Positions 3,279-15,918 of a DNA stretch of 64,000 nt are shown here, piece by piece. The stretch covers positions 1 to 64,000 of IMG/VR virus record IMGVR_UViG_3300042306_000227; one strand, 5' to 3'. The position numbers were made by a program, and so were the translations under genes. This stretch comes from a virus. A model generated the notes under the pieces. The model saw only the letters and a list, made by a program, of their open reading frames with translations, made no database searches and had not been told where the DNA came from. Position 1 is the stretch's first letter. Each line of letters starts with the position of its first letter.

Positions 3279-5432
3279 TTAAAAAGGATTTTGAGATGAA
3301 TCAGTTAATAAGTTTAGACTCAATTCATGTTCATTGAATATATACACGAATCTATTACCATCTAGTCTCTTAGCTAGAGCGCATATATATGTGCCATCCT
3401 CGTGTCTGATAAAGTTCATGTAGTACCTTTCAGATGACAAAGTAGATAGCTTAAATTCAGCCCTGAAACACATGTTTGTTGTATCTGTGAATCTAGATGT
3501 GGTAATTAGCATTGCAAATATTCTGTTGAAAAATGACATCTCGCTCTGAGAATATGTTTGACATACTTGCATATCATTGTCTCTGCATGAATCAAATAAT
3601 CTTTCTGTCTGTGAATTAATAACCGATACAGGCAATGTCTCATAGTTTAATACAGAGCTAATCACACCACCAATAGTATTCAATGCTTTTTTCACCATGA
3701 TACTAAAGTTACTGCTGTATTCACATGGTGTGCCTAATGATACCATGCTGTTTGGCGCAAAGAATTGACATAGCTGTTCATTTGTCGCTCTCAAATTGTT
3801 TACATAAATTTCATCTGAAAGGAATGCTGTATTCAATTCTGTTCTTGACCTTGATGATAGTTCTCTGTATCTTACTACATCCTGAGCGAATGATGGTTCT
3901 TCTGTCACATCTGTAGAACGCTCCTGTCTGTATGAATCATCCACATTATTTGCGCTGTATGTACCTAATGTAGGCAAATCATCTGAGAATCTACTAGCAT
4001 CAAAACTTCCACCTGTCACCTGTGTATCAGGTAAGTCTACATGGAATACTCTTTCTCTAGGTGCTTCTGTAGGTACTTCTGTAGTCTCTGTAGGAGTAAT
4101 GATACTCATGCTCATCATCTGCTCAACTTTCTTAATCGTGTTAATTGTAACGATACCACATTTGTACTTAGCTGATAATGTGATGAATGTCTTGAACTTG
4201 TTCTTGAACTTATCCATGTCACCATTGCACACTACATTAAGCATAAAATTATATAGCTTAGAATTCTTTTTAGCCATCTCAAGGATAACCTTGTTATGTG
4301 TCTTACCATACAGGTCATTTAATACTATGCGCATCAAATCAATTCTGTTCTTAAGGATGGTGTTGCTCTTAATTGCAGGGAATATTCTGAATTCAAGAAT
4401 CTCATTGTTCTTCACATAGAATGATTGGTATTTTCTAGGTGAGCGAAGGTATGTACCAAACTGCTGTGCTTGGCAATAGCTGTTGTTTAAACGCTTCTCA
4501 TAGATTGAATAGAATATTGGTAAACTTCCTTTCACTTTCTTAAGGATGTCCTTAGATTGTACACCATTGATTGATACATTGATGTGACCGCCACATCTGT
4601 CGCTAGTTTCCGCATCCAATATGTCTCTAACAGGTGCAAGTACTTCATTGATGACTGCATCATTGTTCAATGGCAATACAGGAGAAATCAATTCAAATCC
4701 ACCATCACCTAAACTTCCATCTCTCTCTTTCTTAAATCCTGTCTCAAACGCTAGTTTAATAGCATTCTCTCTGTCCCTGAATGTATAGTCTTGCTTCTCT
4801 GCTTCAAAACCAAAGTTAACTGCACCTAGAGTCTTGTCCATGTACTTTGTGAAATTAGATGCAATCTTTGGATGCCATGCTGAATAATGATAACCTAGCA
4901 ATGTATCTGTTCCCCAAATTTGGCTGTCATCTGTAACCTTTACAAGTCTTCCAACTTCCACCAATGACTCTGTTAAATCAGGTGCAATCATATCATCACT
5001 GATAACAATAACTTTAATCTTGTATCCGTTATGCTCTCTGTTTTCATCAATGTAATACTTCATACCGAATTCATTTACTAGCAAATCAAATAGTGAACTG
5101 CTGATATGAATTTCTGTATCATTTAGCTTTAATCTTATTCTGCTTCCACCTGAATGTGTTGAATACAATTGTGGTACGATTATTCTTCCGCTGTTCATTT
5201 TAGCTAGTCTGAACATGTTAGCATATCTGCTTTCACTATTCGTTCCTGATGAGTAAACGCTCTCGTAATCATAGACTGCATCACTTGTCATTGAACTTGA
5301 TGTCATGACTACAAACTTTTGGATGTACTTGTTAGAGAATGCATCCAATGGTAATAAAAATTTGTTTCTGCTTCTCTCATTTACAGGTGTCAATACAGAG
5401 AATTTTCTAGGTTGTTTTTTAACTTGATTCAT
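3279..5432 (-). CDS. putative amidoligase (COOH-NH2 ligase, Amidoligase_2-like) with long N- and C-terminal extensions
   Basis: FGFEAE, ERDGSL..GFELISP, CGGHINVS and LEFRIF motifs. Start at MNQVKK (5432) is preferred over 5489, which overlaps the upstream gene. Confidence 0.85.
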   Translation of the reverse strand: MNQVKKQPRKFSVLTPVNERSRNKFLLPLDAFSNKYIQKFVVMTSSSMTSDAVYDYESVYSSGTNSESRYANMFRLAKMNSGRIIVPQLYSTHSGGSRIRLKLNDTEIHISSSLFDLLVNEFGMKYYIDENREHNGYKIKVIVISDDMIAPDLTESLVEVGRLVKVTDDSQIWGTDTLLGYHYSAWHPKIASNFTKYMDKTLGAVNFGFEAEKQDYTFRDRENAIKLAFETGFKKERDGSLGDGGFELISPVLPLNNDAVINEVLAPVRDILDAETSDRCGGHINVSINGVQSKDILKKVKGSLPIFYSIYEKRLNNSYCQAQQFGTYLRSPRKYQSFYVKNNEILEFRIFPAIKSNTILKNRIDLMRIVLNDLYGKTHNKVILEMAKKNSKLYNFMLNVVCNGDMDKFKNKFKTFITLSAKYKCGIVTINTIKKVEQMMSMSIITPTETTEVPTEAPRERVFHVDLPDTQVTGGSFDASRFSDDLPTLGTYSANNVDDSYRQERSTDVTEEPSFAQDVVRYRELSSRSRTELNTAFLSDEIYVNNLRATNEQLCQFFAPNSMVSLGTPCEYSSNFSIMVKKALNTIGGVISSVLNYETLPVSVINSQTERLFDSCRDNDMQVCQTYSQSEMSFFNRIFAMLITTSRFTDTTNMCFRAEFKLSTLSSERYYMNFIRHEDGTYICALAKRLDGNRFVYIFNEHELSLNLLTDSSQNPF

Positions 5433-5460
5433 GGCTGTGAATTTTTGGTTATTGGTTAAA

Positions 5461-5652
5461 TTATTTGATTGATTTTTGAGCATTGTCATAGTACATGTAA
5501 CTTCCTAATGCACCTGTCGTAAACACAAAGCATATGATTGCTAGATTGACAGCTGTTGGTTCCATTGTCATGAAACCTAATACAGGAATGAACATTGTCA
5601 CGATTGACAATAAAACTGCTAATACCATGTTGATTTTGTAATAATTACTCAT
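5461..5652 (-). CDS. two-TM membrane protein
   Basis: 63 aa with two hydrophobic helices. Confidence 0.7.
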   Translation of the reverse strand: MSNYYKINMVLAVLLSIVTMFIPVLGFMTMEPTAVNLAIICFVFTTGALGSYMYYDNAQKSIK

Positions 5653-5674
5653 TTGATTAAGATTTACTGATTGA

Positions 5675-5857
5675 TTAAATTGTTATAAATACAGGTTCTT
5701 TTTTGCTGTCACTTTCGTATACATAAAAAAAGTAATTAGGGAAATAGCTTTGCAACCTTTCTACTTCTTTCTCTGCCTCATGTTTAGTTTTATAATAGCC
5801 ATGTGAACCAATGTTTCCATAGCCTGAATCCTCAATGACATGATAATACTTCCTCAT
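5675..5857 (-). CDS. hypothetical protein (60 aa)
   Basis: Start at MRKYYH (5857). Its upstream sequence duplicates that of the 5652 start. Confidence 0.7.
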   Translation of the reverse strand: MRKYYHVIEDSGYGNIGSHGYYKTKHEAEKEVERLQSYFPNYFFYVYESDSKKEPVFITI

Positions 5858-5861
5858 TTGA

Positions 5862-6041
5862 TTAAGATTTATGATTGATAAAATTGTGAACGATGGTGAA
5901 TAAAGATGGCGCAAAGTTTCCCTGTAATTCATGCAGTACAATTGTTCCATCTGTGTTGATAGCTTCTACCTGATACACATCAAATTCATGTGTGTAATCA
6001 TCTGTGAACGATACATAATCGTATACTTTAAATTGTCCCAT
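5862..6041 (-). CDS. hypothetical protein (59 aa), first gene of the early operon
   Basis: Not in the track. Read by hand: MGQFKVYDYVSFTDDYTHEFDVYQVEAINTDGTIVLHELQGNFAPSLFTIVHNFINHKS; A-rich initiation region. Confidence 0.7.
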   Translation of the reverse strand: MGQFKVYDYVSFTDDYTHEFDVYQVEAINTDGTIVLHELQGNFAPSLFTIVHNFINHKS

Positions 6042-6059
6042 GTTAAATGGTTTTTTAAT

Positions 6060-6113
6060 TACTATTTCATCCTTTCGGAATCATCAGCACACATAACACA
6101 TGTGTGTATAGCA
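6060..6113 (-). ncRNA. type III hammerhead ribozyme
   Basis: Minus strand: UGCUAUA^CACACAU-GUGUU-AUGUGUG-CUGAUGA-UUCC-GAAA-GGAU-GAAA-UAGUA. Complete core, 7-bp stem I, GAAA-capped stem II, 6-bp stem III, AUA cleavage triplet. Confidence 0.9.
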
Positions 6114-6144
6114 TCGCAATCCCTAGTATGCTCATCTGTATGCT

Positions 6145-6371
6145 CTATGTCTGTTCCTGTACTTAGATAACGATTTACATCGTGATGGGTACATTATCTG
6201 TAGCTACATGCAGTCTATTGTATAAAAGTTCATGCTTTCAAGCTAACTACTAGCATGATGTGTATGCATTCAATCATGGCGTAGTGTACTTGGTGTGTCT
6301 CTGTAGCCTGTCTACTTTTGTTCCTGTACTTATAGTGTGCTTGTCAGCAGTTTTGGGTACATTGTCCGTAG
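6145..6371 (-). ncRNA. two copies of an unidentified ~60-nt structured leader motif (6145-6203, 6312-6371)
   Basis: CUACRGAYAAUGUACCCA-[variable hairpin]-UAAGUACAGGAACA-N4-UAG in both copies. Confidence 0.55.
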
Positions 6372-6446
6372 ATGTCGTTGATTGTCAATCAGTTATGTAT
6401 TGGATATACATGTAACGCATTGATTATCAATAACTTAGGCGTAAAC

Positions 6447-6483
6447 TTCAAAGAACTTGTCGTGCATTGACATCACAATACTA
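6447..6483 (-). promoter_or_regulatory. possible early promoter (-7-like TAGTATTG) followed by boxA-like GTTCTTTGAA
   Basis: Minus strand TAGTATTG at 6476-6483 (one mismatch to TAnnTTTG) and GTTCTTTGAA at 6447-6456. Confidence 0.4.
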
Positions 6484-6615
6484 CATCATGTATGTATACA
6501 AACATCAATTGCACCCAAATATTTTTCAAGATATTTTTTTAGACACAGATAACACAATGTGAATCAATCAGATGCAACAGAAAAAAAATTTTAAAAAAAG
6601 TTATCAGGACAGCAA

Positions 6616-7040
6616 ACAGGGATAATTGCAAACGTTTGCGGTAATTTTTGCATAGTTTTCTGGAAAACATTGAAGGTGCATAAAAGGACACAGATACAGG
6701 ATGTGATTGTTAACAGACAACAGAAGGAAACAGGACACAATGTATACAGGAGAAAACACAGGAGAGAATAGTTATAACTAAGAACTTAGTCACATACAGG
6801 TGTGACACAGGAAGACAGGCAAAGGTTATTTCGGATTATTACACAGGGACAAAATACACAGGAGATAGGTAAGCATGACAGATACACAGGAGACAAAGCA
6901 TATAGGTGTATGGGCAATGTTACGCATACAGGCTTACATAGGCATCTGATAACACTATAACACATTGATTGATAATGAATTAGGTTACTAACCTACATTA
7001 GGATTGACCTACCCACTCAGGCAAAGCAGTTTCCCACAGG
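6616..7040 (+). repeat. strand-biased ACAGG repeat region (origin or terminus candidate)
   Basis: 13 ACAGG counted on the + strand; ACACAGGAGA at 6756, 6856 and 6884. Confidence 0.7.
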
Positions 7041-7210
7041 TTAGGCATGGCCTGTCATTAATACTGGAACCCTACGCTATCAGATTGATGCCCTTATTCT
7101 TAATAGGCTGGAATGGGCAAATGTGTGTGCAGATTGCAAGGTGCAGAAAGACCTACCCATGTGCTGAAAGCATATGTACCCAGTCTGCAGAACGTTAAGT
7201 TGCTGGGCCA

Positions 7211-7243
7211 GGGTCGGCCGCCCCCTATTAGGGCGGGCCGCCC
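7211..7243. other. GC-rich hairpin
   Basis: GGGTCGGCCGCCC-CCTATTA-GGGCGGGCCGCCC in an otherwise AT-rich genome; no U-tract. Confidence 0.7.
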
Positions 7244-7244
7244 A

Positions 7245-7372
7245 ACACTGCACTTTTGCACGTGTAAATCGTAATACTACGATACGTATATATTCGTAAT
7301 TATACGAATTGATATACGAATGTCCAGTTATTGCTTTACTAAACTGGACTTAAGTAAAGCTATTGCTATACT
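7245..7372. repeat. array of five different short palindromes
   Basis: Includes ATCGTA-N4-TACGAT, ATTCGTA-N4-TACGAAT and GTCCAGTT-N12-AACTGGAC. Confidence 0.7.
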
Positions 7373-7468
7373 ATGAGAAATACTATGTAATATATATAAG
7401 AAGGAAACCTCATAACTCTCTGACAATCAATACCTGTTTCTCAATTTTTTTAAAAATAAAAAGGAAAA

Positions 7469-7500
7469 TTTGGTTTATGAGGGTATAATAACTAGATTTG
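7469..7500 (+). promoter_or_regulatory. Bacteroidota primary-sigma promoter
   Basis: TTTG-N20-TAGATTTG. Confidence 0.75.
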
Positions 7501-7523
7501 TTACTCAATCTAAGCACAAATAT

Positions 7524-7982
7524 ATGGAAGAATATAATTTCAAAAAAGCTTTATTAAAGTCTCAGGAAGCAGTGGTTTTTATGGGGGATTTTTTTAAAAG
7601 CAAAGGATATGAGGTAGATATACCTGAACTAGTTATAGCTCCATATAATGTGGGGGCATTTTCAGAATATGCAGACCAAGGAGATATGTTCTTAAGAAAG
7701 GATGGGGAAGAGATTAAACTAGAAATAAAGAATATAAATACACCATTTACTACAACATGGCCTTATAAGGATGTAATAGTAAACTCATACCCTGGCTATC
7801 AATCAAAAATAGTTAAACCAGATGTGCATATAATACTAAATAAAGATAAGACACACTACATATCAATAAGAAATGAAACATTTGACAAATGGGAGCTTAG
7901 GAGAACCTTTGATAGGGTAAAGCAAAAAGATTTACTATTCTATTACGTAGACAAGAAGTATATTAATTTTTTTAAAATATAA
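7524..7982 (+). CDS. putative PD-(D/E)XK-fold nuclease
   Basis: 'DQGDMF...KLEIKN'; start moved to ATG 7524, downstream of the promoter. Confidence 0.55.
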   Translation: MEEYNFKKALLKSQEAVVFMGDFFKSKGYEVDIPELVIAPYNVGAFSEYADQGDMFLRKDGEEIKLEIKNINTPFTTTWPYKDVIVNSYPGYQSKIVKPDVHIILNKDKTHYISIRNETFDKWELRRTFDRVKQKDLLFYYVDKKYINFFKI

Positions 7983-11004: not shown

Positions 11005-11578
11005 TCTTATACAACTAACCAGAACTGAATTAATAGAGATTGTAAGAGATTTAAAAAAACAGCTATATGCACTTGAGGCAAAGCGTAAAAGAAATATAGA
11101 TGTATTAGAGAGAAGAGTTGTTAGGAAGAACGATAAGATAAGAAAGCAAAGTGGAATCATATTTATACTAGAGAAAAGACTTTATGGGCAAAAGCTAAAA
11201 ACAAGCAAGGTAAAGACACAAGCTAAGAATGAGGCGTATGAAGAGGCTACAAATAATATTGTAAACAAAGAAAAGTCTCTGATTGATATTAGCAAGTACC
11301 ACATGTCTATACTTGAGTTGTCAGAAGTATTTGGTGAGTCGCCAGCTACAATTGTAGTACTTTTATGGGCAGGGAGATATGAATACTATTCTAAGAAAGA
11401 GTTTAACATCAACTTCCCAGACTCCCCAATAAACTTTGTTAAGTATAATACTACACTGAATAAAAGAGGGTTATGTAATAAGTGGGATAATAAAAGGTAC
11501 TACTATTACATATCAGCATCTGGCAAGGATATGATTGCAAGAATTAACAAGTACATAGAAAAACGAATGAATGGTTGA
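10997..11578 (+). CDS. coiled-coil plus winged-helix protein
   Basis: N-terminal heptads; C-terminal 'LNKRGL...YYYYISASGKDMI'. Confidence 0.55.
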   Translation: MLSLIQLTRTELIEIVRDLKKQLYALEAKRKRNIDVLERRVVRKNDKIRKQSGIIFILEKRLYGQKLKTSKVKTQAKNEAYEEATNNIVNKEKSLIDISKYHMSILELSEVFGESPATIVVLLWAGRYEYYSKKEFNINFPDSPINFVKYNTTLNKRGLCNKWDNKRYYYYISASGKDMIARINKYIEKRMNG

Positions 11579-13595
11579 GACAGTAGAAATATACGGAATC
11601 AAGATTAAGCTACCTGAACGATTTAAAGTTCACAAGCGCTCAGAATACAAACGAGACCAAAAGTTTGAAAGGATTACATTCCCAGATAGCTTTTACTCAA
11701 TTGAATTTGCTGAAGACGGAGTTGCGCTGTATAGCGAAGAGCAAGTGCAATACATTACGGATGAGTACGAAAAGATGAAGCATGGCTATTGGTTTTATAA
11801 CAATGGCGTGCCAACATATATCACAGGCCTCCACTACTTCTATTTAAACTACTGGACACTAGAGGATGGCTCTAGGCCAGATTACAGAGATGCAGATAGA
11901 AGATGGTTTATTTACAGAGAGCATTGTGAATCATTGCCATACTGCTTTGGAGTTATACGTATTAAGAAGCGTCGTGAGGGAGCTACATCACAAGAGGCAT
12001 GTGCGCTTGTTTACAAAGCGATTATGAAGCCTAAGTCTAACTGCGGAATAGTAAGTAAGACAGGTAATCCAGATGCTAGAGATGTGTTCCAGAAAATGGT
12101 TGTGTGGGGATACAAGAACCTACCAGTATTCTTAAAGCCATCTGTGGAAGATGAGACATCTAAAACAAGTTTAGTATTCTCTCCTCCAAAAAGAAAAACA
12201 AAAAGTAATACAAGAACTAAGGGTCAAGTATTTGATGATGACATGGGATTAGAGTCTGTGATTGATTACAGAAGCACTGCACTAAACTCATATGACTCTG
12301 GTCGTGTTACAGCAATACTTATTGACGAGGGTGGTAAGTGGCCAAAGGATGTGCCTATTAACAAGTACTGGCCTATTGTAAGAAAGACCCTAACGAAGGG
12401 TATGATTAAAGTAGGTTTTGCTGTTATACCATCTACTGTGAATGACTCTGATAATGGAGGTAATGAGTTTAAAGAATTATTTGATGGTAGCTATGCTAGC
12501 GAAACAAGCAAGTTTACGGCTACAGGATTGTACCAATACTTCTGCCCAGCATACGATGGGTATGAAGGTTTTATAGATGAGTATGGGATGTCTATTATTG
12601 ATAAGCCCACGAAAGAACAACAGCAATACATTAAAGAAAAGTTTGGTATTGATATAGAGGTTGGAGCAAAGGACTTCTTGATGCAACAAAGAACACTTAT
12701 CAAAGACCCTACTGCCTTATCTGAAGAGGTTAGAATGAACCCATTCTCAGTAGAGGAGGCATTTAAGATTGATGCCAAGAAATGTTATTTTGATAGCGAG
12801 ATGATATACGAGCAGTTGAATATACTTTCAGTAGAGCCTGTCAGAAAAAGAAGAGGTAGATTCTTATGGAAGGATGGGGTAAAAGGTGGAGATGTTGTAT
12901 TCAGCGATGCTACAGATGGGGAATGGAGTGTAATAGAACTACCAGATGTTTCCAACTTATCACAGCACGGAGATAGGGGTAGAGTCCCAGGAAACACACC
13001 TGTCTATGTGATGGGGGTTGACCCATTCAGAAACTCTATCGTAAACTCAAAGTATGGCTCTATGGGTTCAGCATGGATGATGAAAAAATTCAATGCCGCA
13101 GACCCAGAAAACACAGGATTGCCAGTTGCCCATTACTATGGAAGACCAAGATTAAAGACATTGTTTGATGAGGAAATGTTAAAGGCTGCTATCTACTATG
13201 GTTGCAAGATAGTATATGAGATGGATGCCAGTGATGATATTGTAAGAACTGCAATGGAGCTTAAGCTATTAAACTACTTAAGTAAAACTCCAGATTCTGC
13301 TATCAAGCCAGGCAAGGAAGGACAGAAAAATAAAGAGTGGGGAGTTAAGAGTTCTGACCCATACGCAATGGGACAACAGCTTGAATTAGCAATCCAGTAC
13401 ACAAATAGTCACATACACAAATTATATTATGAAGAGCTTTTAGAGGAAATGCTTGTTTACGACCATATGAATCGTACGGAATATGACCGTACAGTTAGTT
13501 TTATGATATCACTCCTTGGGATGATGGGTCATAGGACAAAACAGGAGTCTATGGTTAAAACATTGCCAATTCAAACCTTTAAGCTTAAATTGTAA
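11571..13595 (+). CDS. terL: terminase large subunit
   Basis: KKRREGAT (Walker A), ILIDEGGK (Walker B), PST coupling motif, GVDP nuclease aspartate. Confidence 0.92.
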   Translation: MVETVEIYGIKIKLPERFKVHKRSEYKRDQKFERITFPDSFYSIEFAEDGVALYSEEQVQYITDEYEKMKHGYWFYNNGVPTYITGLHYFYLNYWTLEDGSRPDYRDADRRWFIYREHCESLPYCFGVIRIKKRREGATSQEACALVYKAIMKPKSNCGIVSKTGNPDARDVFQKMVVWGYKNLPVFLKPSVEDETSKTSLVFSPPKRKTKSNTRTKGQVFDDDMGLESVIDYRSTALNSYDSGRVTAILIDEGGKWPKDVPINKYWPIVRKTLTKGMIKVGFAVIPSTVNDSDNGGNEFKELFDGSYASETSKFTATGLYQYFCPAYDGYEGFIDEYGMSIIDKPTKEQQQYIKEKFGIDIEVGAKDFLMQQRTLIKDPTALSEEVRMNPFSVEEAFKIDAKKCYFDSEMIYEQLNILSVEPVRKRRGRFLWKDGVKGGDVVFSDATDGEWSVIELPDVSNLSQHGDRGRVPGNTPVYVMGVDPFRNSIVNSKYGSMGSAWMMKKFNAADPENTGLPVAHYYGRPRLKTLFDEEMLKAAIYYGCKIVYEMDASDDIVRTAMELKLLNYLSKTPDSAIKPGKEGQKNKEWGVKSSDPYAMGQQLELAIQYTNSHIHKLYYEELLEEMLVYDHMNRTEYDRTVSFMISLLGMMGHRTKQESMVKTLPIQTFKLKL

Positions 13596-13620: not shown

Positions 13621-15918
13621 ATGTCTAATAACAGTAATGCATTATTGAATTTCCATTCCGCTTCTCCTGAAAAGAAGAGGACTATGGAATTTGGGTTGAA
13701 AATAGCCCAACATATTGAAAAACATTGGAAAAGTGAGTACTACACTGATAGAAACAAGAGAATTGAAAAAAATATCAAGTTTGCTACAGGAAAACAACCA
13801 ATGCAAGAATACCTATCTCAAATGAGCTTGGATGGTAAGGATGTATATATTAACATAGATACAACACCTCCTCCTATCGCTCCTAAGTTTGTAGAGGTAA
13901 TCATAGGCAGCTTGATGAAAAGAGAGGAGAAGCCTAGAGTATCAGCTGTAGACCCAGTATCATTACAACAGAAGTTTAACGACAAGTCTGACTCTAAGTT
14001 CTTAATGGAGAACATGGATTTTGTAAAGGAATTAGAAGGACAGCTAAATACCAAACTTGTAGATGAGAATCAGTTTATCCCAGAAGATAATGATGACTTA
14101 AATCTTTACTACGAGCTAGAGCATAGAATACCAGAAGAAATATTCTTTGAACAAGGTATTCAGTACGTATGGGACAGCAACTCAACTAATGTAATTAAAA
14201 GAAGAGTAATATTTGATGTAGTTACGGCTGGTTATGCTGGAACTAGAACTATAATGGATGAGCAAGGAAAGATTAAACTTAAGAGATGTATCCCTCAAAA
14301 TCTAATCTACTCATTCTCTGAGTATGATGACTTTAGAGATGCATCATTTATAGGCGAGGTTCAACCAATGAAGATTAGCGAAATTCGTGTACTATACCCA
14401 GATTTAGATGAGGAGAAGCTATTCCAAATATCTCAGAAGGCTAAGAACAGACAATCTATTAGCAGATGGGATGAGAGATGGAGAAGCGCTGAGACTAGAC
14501 CATATGACGAGTTAGCGGTAGACATTTTGATGTTTGAATTAAAGACAATTGATAATTTATTATATCAGGTTAAAAAGACTGCCAACGGCTCTGTAGCTGT
14601 TGACAAAAAGGAAAGAATGCCTGAAAGACTTGGAGAGAATAAAGAAATGATTGACAAATCAATCTTCGTAATCTATCAAGGTGCTTATGTTATTGATAGC
14701 AATATCATGATTGAATGGAAGAAGCAGAAGAACATGATTAAACCTTCTATGCCAGAAAGAATGGCTGAGGCTTATTTCAGTTATTCTCTTTATATGCCAG
14801 ACAACTACGAGTTAAAGAACTTACCAATGATTCAGCGTATGGAAACATCTATACGTCAAATGACATTGACACATCTTAAGATTCAACAATTAGTTGCTAA
14901 GATGAGACCTTCTGGTTTAATGATTGACATCAACAACCTTAGAAATATATCTTTAGGTGAAGGAAAGACAGTTGAGCCATTAGAGTTACAAAAGATTTAC
15001 GACCAGACTGGTAACATGTACTATAGTGGTCAAGATGAAGAGGGTAACAGACAAGGGCCTCCAATACAAGAGCTTACAAATAGCGGTTCTGTAGCTCAGT
15101 TACAAGAGCTTATTAATATATTCAACTACTACTTAAGTAGATTAAGAGAAGAAACTGGTATCAATGAATTAAGAGATGGTGCAGGCGTTAACCCAAGACT
15201 TGGTAACAAACAAATGCAGGCTGGTATAGCAGCGTCTAACAACGCTACTGACTTCATCTATGATTCTTATATCAATATCATTGAAAACACAATGATGAAG
15301 TGTGGTATTTTATTGACTGATGCTGTTAAGTATAAGGTTAAAGAATACTCTAATTTAATTAAGGTTCCTGTTGATAATAGATATTTTGACATCAAGGTTG
15401 AGATGATGCCTGATGATGATTACAGACAATTCTTAGAGCAAATGGTACAATCTGCCTTATCTGGTGGAGCTATTGACTTTGAGACAGCGTTTAATATTAG
15501 AAATATTAAGAATGTTAAGCTAGGAGAACTTTATCTAGCTAGAGCTACTAAGAAGAAGCAAAAAGAATCTCAACAACAGGCTCAGCAAAACGCACAAATG
15601 AATGCTCAGTCACAGCAAGAGTCATTGCAATTAAAGGCACAAGCTGATATGCAATTAGAGCAAATGCAGGGTGAGTATAAAGTAGGGGCTGTAAAGGTTG
15701 AGCAAGAAATGAGAGGTGATAATGATATGCAGACATTTGTTATGGGTATCTTACAGAAATCATTTGAAATGGATAAACCATTGACTCCAGAGCTTCAGAA
15801 TATAGTTAACATGTATTTTCAGAAAGAACAACAAAAACAACTAGCTTTGCAACAGCAGGCTGAACAGCAAGCCCAACAAGAGGCTATGGCTCAACAACAG
15901 GCACAACAACAGGGATAA
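13621..15918 (+). CDS. portal protein
   Basis: 765 aa directly after terL, 'ETGINELRDG', Gln-rich C-terminal coiled tail; promoter TATCTTTG at 13596-13603. Confidence 0.85.
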   Translation: MSNNSNALLNFHSASPEKKRTMEFGLKIAQHIEKHWKSEYYTDRNKRIEKNIKFATGKQPMQEYLSQMSLDGKDVYINIDTTPPPIAPKFVEVIIGSLMKREEKPRVSAVDPVSLQQKFNDKSDSKFLMENMDFVKELEGQLNTKLVDENQFIPEDNDDLNLYYELEHRIPEEIFFEQGIQYVWDSNSTNVIKRRVIFDVVTAGYAGTRTIMDEQGKIKLKRCIPQNLIYSFSEYDDFRDASFIGEVQPMKISEIRVLYPDLDEEKLFQISQKAKNRQSISRWDERWRSAETRPYDELAVDILMFELKTIDNLLYQVKKTANGSVAVDKKERMPERLGENKEMIDKSIFVIYQGAYVIDSNIMIEWKKQKNMIKPSMPERMAEAYFSYSLYMPDNYELKNLPMIQRMETSIRQMTLTHLKIQQLVAKMRPSGLMIDINNLRNISLGEGKTVEPLELQKIYDQTGNMYYSGQDEEGNRQGPPIQELTNSGSVAQLQELINIFNYYLSRLREETGINELRDGAGVNPRLGNKQMQAGIAASNNATDFIYDSYINIIENTMMKCGILLTDAVKYKVKEYSNLIKVPVDNRYFDIKVEMMPDDDYRQFLEQMVQSALSGGAIDFETAFNIRNIKNVKLGELYLARATKKKQKESQQQAQQNAQMNAQSQQESLQLKAQADMQLEQMQGEYKVGAVKVEQEMRGDNDMQTFVMGILQKSFEMDKPLTPELQNIVNMYFQKEQQKQLALQQQAEQQAQQEAMAQQQAQQQG

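Follow-up and report, generated by a model that had tools for sequence, protein, structure and literature searches.

This study was concerned with a non-coding element on the minus strand of IMG/VR virus record IMGVR_UViG_3300042306_000227, of which positions 1 to 64,000 (the window, to which all positions without a contig label refer) were analyzed. The element, here called the cassette, carries two copies of a 60-base motif separated by a spacer and is accompanied by a type III hammerhead ribozyme (Table 1). An initial annotation, made from the letters alone, had described 6145-6371 as an unknown duplicated RNA motif with a covarying hairpin upstream of a ribozyme, and the minus-strand letters of that interval are exactly as it gave them. 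Our results indicate that motif and ribozyme form a tandemly duplicated unit, and the cassette recurs in an otherwise unrelated phage contig.

The locus and its tandem units

The window belongs to a tailed phage, with a large terminase (11571-13595) and a portal protein (13621-15918) identified by a family scan of the window proteins. By terminase, the nearest cultured relatives are Flavobacterium and Cellulophaga phages, and all 88 matching records were below 60% identity. The host group is probably Flavobacteriia. The motif region lies in a stretch of about 1.4 kb that is poor in open reading frames (ORFs), between a leftward gene block with its first ATG at 6041 and a rightward block that starts near 7470. 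The GC skew flips sign at this strand-switch stretch. Stops occur throughout all six frames of 6042-6500 in a six-frame translation. A coding role of the cassette was rejected; an antisense 51-aa ORF in the homologous cassette of contig L025 (described below) is interrupted in the window and is not conserved.

ARAGORN found no transfer RNA (tRNA) in the window, and Rfam 15 gave no match at the gathering score across the whole window, motif and cassette included. At E<=10 in 5500-7000, three chance-level matches resembling small nucleolar RNAs were obtained, all outside the motif copies. The downstream ORFs of 59, 91 and 63 aa had no confident family, the first two when compared with both Pfam and PHROG and the 63-aa ORF when compared with PHROGs alone. 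The 91-aa ORF had a weak YutD-like match (E 0.0086, 16.5 bits) under the cut-off.

A repeat search in the window identified two conserved blocks, of 22 nt at 86% identity and 18 nt at 89% identity, with spacings of 167 and 168 nt. Block 2 (14 nt) and the 10-nt core of block 1 are mismatch-free at these two sites alone within the 64-kb window. A covariance model, R1, was built from both copies with helices P1, P2 and P3 as its structure. The repeat search and R1, which scored the copies at 88 and 85 bits, confirm the two conserved flank copies of the initial annotation and their uniqueness in the window. The next-best R1 match in 193,484 bases (the window and 10 related loci) scored 18.2 bits (E 0.22). 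The repeat is real and has exactly two copies in the window.

The similarity of the two copies extends past the motif. When 170 nt from the start of each copy were aligned, unit versus unit, the 105-nt tails past each motif also aligned, with a score reached by 4 of 1000 dinucleotide shuffles in global alignment and 8 of 1000 in local alignment. The tail of unit 2 is the hammerhead. At the corresponding places the tail of unit 1 reads CUAGUAG versus CUGAUGA, has a GCU-UGAA-AGC hairpin versus UCC-GAAA-GGA, and reads GAAC versus GAAA. Since the tails are homologous and that of unit 2 is a hammerhead, the ancestral unit would have been a motif followed by a hammerhead. From the alignment, each copy is thus read as the conserved core of one unit in a tandem duplication, a unit being about 167 nt long and made up of a motif and a type III hammerhead. 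This duplication of the whole unit is new relative to the initial annotation. The motif is about 85% identical between copies while the tails align weakly, which indicates that the motif was kept better than the remainder of the unit.

Table 1. Features of the cassette region in window coordinates (MFE, minimum free energy; R1, covariance model built from both motif copies).
Feature	Position	Strand	Details and basis
First ORF of leftward gene block, 59 aa	5862..6041	-	ATG 23 nt past hammerhead core
Type III hammerhead	6060..6113	-	core CUGAUGA 6087-6081; GAAA 6068-6065; predicted cut between 6107 and 6106
Non-coding cassette, ~296 nt, both copies and spacer	6101..6397	-	blastn and alignment to L025
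Motif copy 2	6143..6206	-	R1 85.3 bits; MFE fold
Copy 2 helices	P2 6193-6189 with 6162-6158; P3 hairpin 6183-6170, loop GUAA	-	MFE fold
Unit 1 tail, decayed hammerhead counterpart	6207..6309	-	homologous to unit 2 tail by tail-to-tail alignment
Central hairpin CAUGAU/AUCAUG in unit 1 tail	6254..6278	-	identical in L025; aligns to stem I region of unit 2 hammerhead
Motif copy 1	6310..6374	-	R1 88 bits; MFE fold
Copy 1 helices	P1 CUAC/GUAG; P2 UGUAC 6361-6357 with GUACA 6329-6325; P3 hairpin 6349-6338, loop GACA	-	MFE fold
ATAAC..TGACAATCA element, 5' edge of cassette	6379..6396	-	promoter- or operator-like

The hammerhead subfamily

The hammerhead of the window has the core features of type III: CUGANGA, GAA, the A15.1-U16.1 pair and a non-G residue at position 17. 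Its stem II is UUCC-GAAA-GGAU, which places a U·U, not a standard pair, at 10.1/11.1. The MFE structure of 6058-6116 is a three-way junction. A home-made type III descriptor had a single match in the window, also matched the Rfam-supported site in L025, and had no match in 100 dinucleotide shuffles of the window. Rfam itself gave no match to this hammerhead at E<=10, either in 6030-6140 (111 bases) or in the whole record. Perreault et al. took a mispair at 10.1/11.1 as a ground for rejecting hammerhead matches (PMC3088659).

Comparison with other viral contigs was more informative. The exact 23-nt sequence of core, stem II and GAAA was found in 12 IMG/VR contigs (L086-L097), in all of which the U·U at 10.1/11.1 is present because the search pattern fixed it. 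Eleven sequences were aligned, namely the window and 10 of the 12 loci; L090, which duplicates L086, and L094, in which no stems were seen by eye, were left out. In stems I and III, 98.2% of cells pair and 10 of the 15 pairs change on both sides. The covariation score of these stems was 0.743 versus 0.230 in shuffles and was reached by none of 500 shuffles; it collapsed when the partner was slid by 1-3 columns. In addition, four of the eight sister loci scanned had sub-threshold Hammerhead_3 matches of 29.5-38.4 bits (RF00008 cut-off 48.5). On this comparative evidence the subfamily is judged real as a family, and the 12 contigs and the covariation of stems I and III bear out the ribozyme that had been annotated downstream of the motif. 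Since the family covaries, the minus strand here is under selection as RNA, and the family shows that this strand is read at 6060-6113.

The subfamily is also tied to gene starts. An ATG-led ORF of at least 30 aa begins 24-29 nt past the hammerhead core in 8 of the 12 loci, with differing proteins, and the distance in the window is 23 nt. The hammerhead in L025 had an Rfam Hammerhead_3 match of 33.5 bits (E 2e-4), and its core and stem II had no exact match in IMG/VR.

Two further RNA features were observed in the subfamily contigs. The small contig L092 also has a Twister-P5 ribozyme (51.5 bits, above the Rfam cut-off) at 463-521, about 380 nt 3' of its hammerhead. L087, L088, L093 and L095 carry a conserved GC-rich hairpin (GUGUCYUYAAAGACAC core) just 5' of the hammerhead.

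Sharing of the cassette and evidence for its fold

By blastn, the cassette recurs with 91.7% identity over 300 aligned positions at 3340-3636 of L025, a contig of 5055 nt whose assembly is labelled marine. The two motif copies of L025 scored 79 and 72 bits with R1. Beyond the cassette nothing in L025 matches the window, and the downstream regions gave no convincing alignment past AUACACACA. The L025 cassette sits 3' of the stop codon of a 118-aa gene, and a type III hammerhead lies about 32 nt past it. A type III hammerhead therefore follows on the same strand in both full-length cassettes, and the orientation of the cassette relative to the ribozyme is the same in both contexts.

Close relatives of each phage lack the cassette. 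The sister phage of the window, represented by L006 and L007, is 95-96% identical on both sides of it. In L006, window positions 6033-6487 are replaced by 295 other nt (5368-5662) which hold an ORF from 5427; this is a moron-like swap directly past the common upstream region. The closest relative of L025, L049, is 85% identical upstream and is without the cassette but has an ATAAC..TTGATA element at the left edge. An element of this ATAAC type also follows the 118-aa gene, at 3340-3360 in L025 and 4367-4415 in L049, and is likely a shared promoter or operator and recombination point. Entry of the cassette by recombination at this common regulatory element is plausible. Judged from these alignments, the cassette is mobile between otherwise unrelated phages, which the initial annotation did not include.

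The surroundings of the 118-aa gene hold other RNA genes. L025 itself has four tRNA-like matches. In a 237-kb phage contig (L062, 4387-8056), a transfer-messenger RNA (tmRNA), a GOLLD RNA (269 bits) and 13 tRNA matches lie directly 3' of a homologue of the 118-aa gene. The tmRNA, GOLLD and tRNA arrays beside this gene in relatives of L025 mark the locus as an RNA-gene island.

The cassette itself is real, unannotated and uncommon, and it is probably a new small phage RNA. Pattern scans gave 20 loci in metagenome contigs and 13 in genomes, and of these 33 only L025 was borne out by R1; none of the 13 genome loci scored above 27 bits. Two scans of IMG/VR with motif patterns returned one and four loci, all chance-like, and an exact scan for the 25-nt central hairpin returned no match. 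Two candidate homologues were rejected: L001 lies inside a 2514-aa ORF, and L085 is an unrelated late-gene region with a different fold. No motif copy was found in nine terminase relatives or in 33 relatives of the L025 118-aa gene, and blastn of 5400-7600 against 50,697 phage records gave no match. Word searches of the literature, which cannot prove absence, found no published description of the motif.

The cassette is carried by freshwater and marine phages. Positions 6040-6500 were present in 14 DNA runs at a word share of at least 0.63, all of them lake or freshwater metagenomes, and five of these 14 are possibly the source of this DNA. Runs with a word share below 0.2 and uncovered bins were not taken as evidence of habitat or absence. 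Two RNA-library contigs from different studies cover 6199-6352 (X15) and 6162-6341 (X16), with variants partly common to L025. These contigs establish presence in an RNA library, not transcription.

Two features of the wider region were also observed. Positions 70728-73267 of the record (G000) repeat window positions 4656-7205 at an offset of 66,072 with 98.6% identity, and all differences fall within 6642-7127, the iteron-like region described below. This repeat looks like a diverged terminal repeat or like two strain variants that were joined during assembly. Over the cassette the two stretches do not differ, and so no new motif variant was obtained. GC-rich palindromic hairpins (GGGCGGCCCGCCC and neighbours) occur at 7190-7260 on the minus strand of this 35% GC genome and are conserved in L006. 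That region had no Rfam match at E<=1, and the fold z-score of 6990-7290 was -0.99.

With regard to the fold, the UGUAC/GUACA helix and the inner hairpin are the MFE structure of both copies (RNAfold). The UGUAC/GUACA pairing had been proposed in the initial annotation, and two double changes leave it paired, the exception being one A·C discussed below. In copy 1 of L025, a P2 A-U pair is replaced by G-C with a bulged A, as R1 aligns it. In copy 2 of X16, the P2 pair G6192-C6159 is replaced by A-U. GTAC is not under-represented in these genomes, and thus restriction-site avoidance was rejected as the cause of the paired loss of the two GTAC sites. P3 was said to keep its structure with a different sequence. 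The structure holds, with GNNA loops in both copies, but a MAFFT alignment shows that the hairpins are partly the same sequence and differ by one compensatory pair, C-G versus A-U, and a shifted outer pair. When the spacers were shuffled, Watson-Crick hairpins with a stem of 4 bp or more appeared in both in 1.6% of 20,000 trials. Across the four copies, the covariation score was 0.192 versus 0.108 and was reached by 20 of 500 shuffles, with one double-change pair each in P2 and P3. The covariation rests on about three events, and the case that the motif folds as RNA is suggestive, not strong. CRISPR-repeat mimicry, a K-turn, loop E and the hairpin ribozyme were also considered, and no match to their features was seen by eye.

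Interpretation and comparison with known systems

We tentatively read the cassette as a mobile leader or small RNA that is terminated by the hammerhead, carries two equivalent modules and probably binds at two sites. Beyond the observed duplication, absence of coding, horizontal sharing, hammerhead family and presence in RNA libraries, the proposed steps are as follows. First, minus-strand transcription would make the cassette the leader of the leftward operon. Secondly, the intact downstream hammerhead would cut in vivo between 6107 and 6106. Third, the cut would free an RNA of about 250-400 nt that ends in a 2',3'-cyclic phosphate, and a short 5'-OH leader would stay on the messenger RNA. 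A hammerhead-defined 3' end is a reasonable inference since the neighboring ribozyme is real as a family. In each module, P2 would enclose P3 with its GNNA loop, flanked by invariant single-stranded GAYAAU, CCCA, UAAG and GAAC. Lastly, the modules would most likely act as a two-site binding RNA or a decoy for a host or phage protein. A more far-reaching claim, which we consider doubtful, is that the cassette represents an undescribed class of phage small RNA, in which a self-contained motif and hammerhead unit moves between unrelated phages with a ribozyme-made 3' end and two identical modules that capture a host or phage factor. In its boldest form, the modules would be a new catalytic fold.

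Several observations weigh against the reading as a leader or small RNA. The number of double-change pairs across the four copies was no higher than in shuffles (270 of 500), and the fold energies of the copies, the spacer and the whole leader were ordinary (z -0.3 to -1.3 versus shuffles). Two parts of the annotated fold did not hold in full. The CUA/UAG helix (P1) has only 3 bp in copy 2, is broken in copy 2 of L025 by an A-to-U change, and pairs in just 81% of cells. Within the spacer, CAUGAU/AUCAUG is present and identical in L025, but the outer CUAC/GUAG helix loses a pair in L025 by a U-to-C change. The X16 variant turns a P2 A-U into A·C on the minus strand and into G·U on the plus strand, which leaves the folding strand unsettled; three of the nine X16 differences are unlisted, and thus a hidden partner change is possible. 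No promoter was identified, and the number of promoter-like sites does not exceed that in shuffles. The two contigs from RNA libraries are short, have depths of 3.1 and 4.3 and are possibly library DNA. The covariance model of both copies and the metagenome search that had been proposed as a check led to the L025 homologue, but 91 other loci (10 + 32 + 33 + 4 + 12) gave no additional copy with R1, and only two genomic contexts and a few variant contigs are at hand. In addition, since hammerheads of the subfamily lie 24-29 nt before unrelated ORFs, the ribozyme may serve the downstream gene and not the cassette. The proposal of a new non-coding RNA therefore stands in part: the cassette is non-coding, has no Rfam match and has a homologue with a few compensatory changes, while the small number of covariation events and the unsettled strand count against it.

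It is unlikely that the conserved blocks act as DNA, as operator, promoter or origin-associated protein sites in which the hairpins are incidental. The position of the cassette at the strand switch would fit such a role, as would the neighboring iteron-like array at 6600-6932 on the minus strand, which has nine CCTGTRT on that strand in 6700-6932, is conserved in L006 and may be an origin or a regulator-binding array. The window has 34 occurrences of TCCTGTR versus 15 expected. Block 2 holds an inverted TCCTGTA, although this 7-nt core alone, in opposite orientation, is common to the array, and an inverted copy of block 1 with one mismatch lies at 7173-7182. The cassette also opens with the ATAAC..TGACAATCA element; ATAAC-N-TGAYAATCA has one other copy in the window, at 7412-7429 on the plus strand facing the rightward operon, so that the two form a divergent pair which flanks the intergenic region and faces outward. 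A palindrome related to this element, ATTGATAATCAAT, was observed at 6419-6431.

Promoter-like sequences fit the same explanation. A sigma-70-like TTGACA-16-GACAAT at 6388-6361 overlaps block 1 of copy 1 in the window and in L025. TTG-N20-TAnnTTTG is the Bacteroidota promoter form, and a TTG-N20-TACTTTTG match at 6290-6320 on the plus strand, antisense in the cassette, is kept in L025; it is one of 20 in the window and may be due to chance. However, a sigma-70 promoter at block 1 was rejected because such sites are no commoner than in shuffles. Copy 2, read by eye, has no -35-like hexamer, and promoters of Flavobacteriia, the probable host group, are not known to be TTGACA/TATAAT. The end of X15 at 6352 is near the start predicted by the sigma-70-like site, but it is the end of a low-depth contig and nothing was drawn from it. 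The 5 kb of L025 have no CCTGTRT cluster beyond the cassette and the sequence just at its 3' edge. In the X16 variant the CCTGT core is lost, yet P2 changes in a paired manner, and double changes which keep complementarity are not expected of protein half-sites.

A neutral remnant, in which a recent duplication of the hammerhead unit was followed by recent transfer and the motif is functionless, is rather improbable. Conservation would then reflect youth. The homology of the units along their whole length is consistent with this, as is the 91.7% identity to L025, which leaves little divergence time; the sister phage lives without the cassette, the family is tiny and the fold energies are ordinary. 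However, the tails are barely alignable and the hammerhead core of unit 1 is lost while the motif is well kept, and this uneven decay argues for selection on the motif. Furthermore, the linkers are where the differences between the window and L025 cluster, the 64 nt of copy 2 differ at one position only, and the changes in P2 are paired.

We consider it improbable that the modules are tandem aptamers or protein sites which control, in cis, hammerhead cleavage or the translation of the first leftward gene. In the window the cassette immediately precedes an ORF (ATG 6041), and in L025 an ATG at 3651 follows AGGAAG. The tandem layout also recalls tandem aptamers. RNAalifold gave a helix that closes the cassette as a whole and has one double change, C-G to U-A; by coordinates, its 3' strand stops one base short of the 5' strand of hammerhead stem III. 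However, the 5' strand of this closing helix doubles as the ATAAC..TGAYAATCA element, so that the double change may have another cause. The hammerhead in L025 is about 32 nt past the cassette and thus the abutment is not conserved; the downstream ORFs of the two contexts are unrelated, and the one in L025 is tiny and shares sequence with the ribozyme. Positions 5400-7700 gave no terminator-like site, the kind of site that a put-like antiterminator RNA, one of the candidates of the initial annotation, would suppress by acting in cis on RNA polymerase. Finally, it is very improbable that each motif copy is a new self-cleaving ribozyme beside a hammerhead, as with twister-sister, pistol and hatchet: its compact helices enclose invariant internal-loop bases, and the setting is rich in ribozymes, with a hammerhead adjacent in both contexts and a twister in one contig of the same subfamily, but it resembles no Rfam ribozyme family, the contigs (which cannot show ends) run unbroken through the 3' half of copy 1 in both runs and most of copy 2 in X16, and nothing positive beyond context speaks for it.

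Family membership for the motif cannot be claimed. Rfam holds the RAGATH families, and no Rfam model, these included, matches the motif. Adjacency to a ribozyme, by which RAGATH candidates are recognized when it recurs, was found here in both full-length instances, where the hammerhead lies downstream. The RAGATH set is reported to have three members proved to be ribozymes and 33 without known function (PMC11061315). The cassette resembles that set as an orphan structured-RNA candidate in a phage-like neighborhood rich in hammerhead and twister ribozymes (PMC11061315). In contrast to that set, the motif is tied to the ribozyme itself by unit duplication and not to common neighboring genes.

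Two other phage systems are comparable. Theta ribozymes, which are like that of hepatitis delta virus (HDV-like), adjoin phage tRNAs and are thought to define their ends (PMC10879173). The cassette is similar in that a small self-cleaving ribozyme stands beside a phage non-coding RNA with a proposed end-defining role (PMC10879173); it differs in having a hammerhead and an uncharacterized RNA, with no tRNA in the window, where the theta system has an HDV-like ribozyme and a tRNA of known function. Hammerheads flank prophage genes. In haloviruses HF1 and HF2, HHphage stands 13 nt ahead of the first ORF in an early transcript, and the 5' end of that transcript has been mapped to the cleavage site (PMC3088659). 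The short distances from core to ATG in the window and in 8 of the 12 subfamily loci are similar, whereas no conserved non-coding cassette 5' of the ribozyme such as the one found here is described for those hammerheads (PMC3088659).

Repeated RNAs of other kinds share single properties with the cassette. Like the CsrB/RsmZ sponges, it has repeated modules which expose a GGA-containing single strand (ACAGGAAC in both copies); unlike them, it has two sites only, the GGA is outside the hairpin loop, and the GGA is lost in the X16 variant. Flavobacteriia, the likely host group, are not known to have CsrA. Satellite DNAs and retrozymes are tandem hammerhead-bearing repeats which yield unit-length RNAs, and the unit of about 167 nt, head to tail, is similar. 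However, the cassette belongs to a DNA phage and has no more than two units, of which the upstream one has lost its hammerhead core, so that excision of unit-length RNA is not expected. Type III toxin-antitoxin systems (ToxI-like) have abutting short repeats followed by an endoribonuclease toxin gene. This candidate was rejected: the copies are 167 nt apart and the downstream ORFs have no confident Pfam or PHROG family within the comparisons given above.

The hammerhead subfamily with U·U at 10.1/11.1, missed by Rfam thresholds, stands as a result independent of the cassette, and its fixed spacing of 24-29 nt to the start codon of unrelated phage genes, as seen in 8 of the 12 contigs, suggests a rule by which the 5' end of the messenger RNA is shaped. 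Material for tests of the cassette exists, since it is present in many lake metagenomes. Should the cassette prove to be a functional RNA, it would represent a non-coding RNA gene that travels between unrelated phages together with the ribozyme that matures it. It would also be a new member of the small set of orphan RNAs from ribozyme-rich neighborhoods, some of which later proved to be ribozymes or guide RNAs. With such an RNA, phage hammerheads, about whose function little is settled, would gain a concrete biological role.

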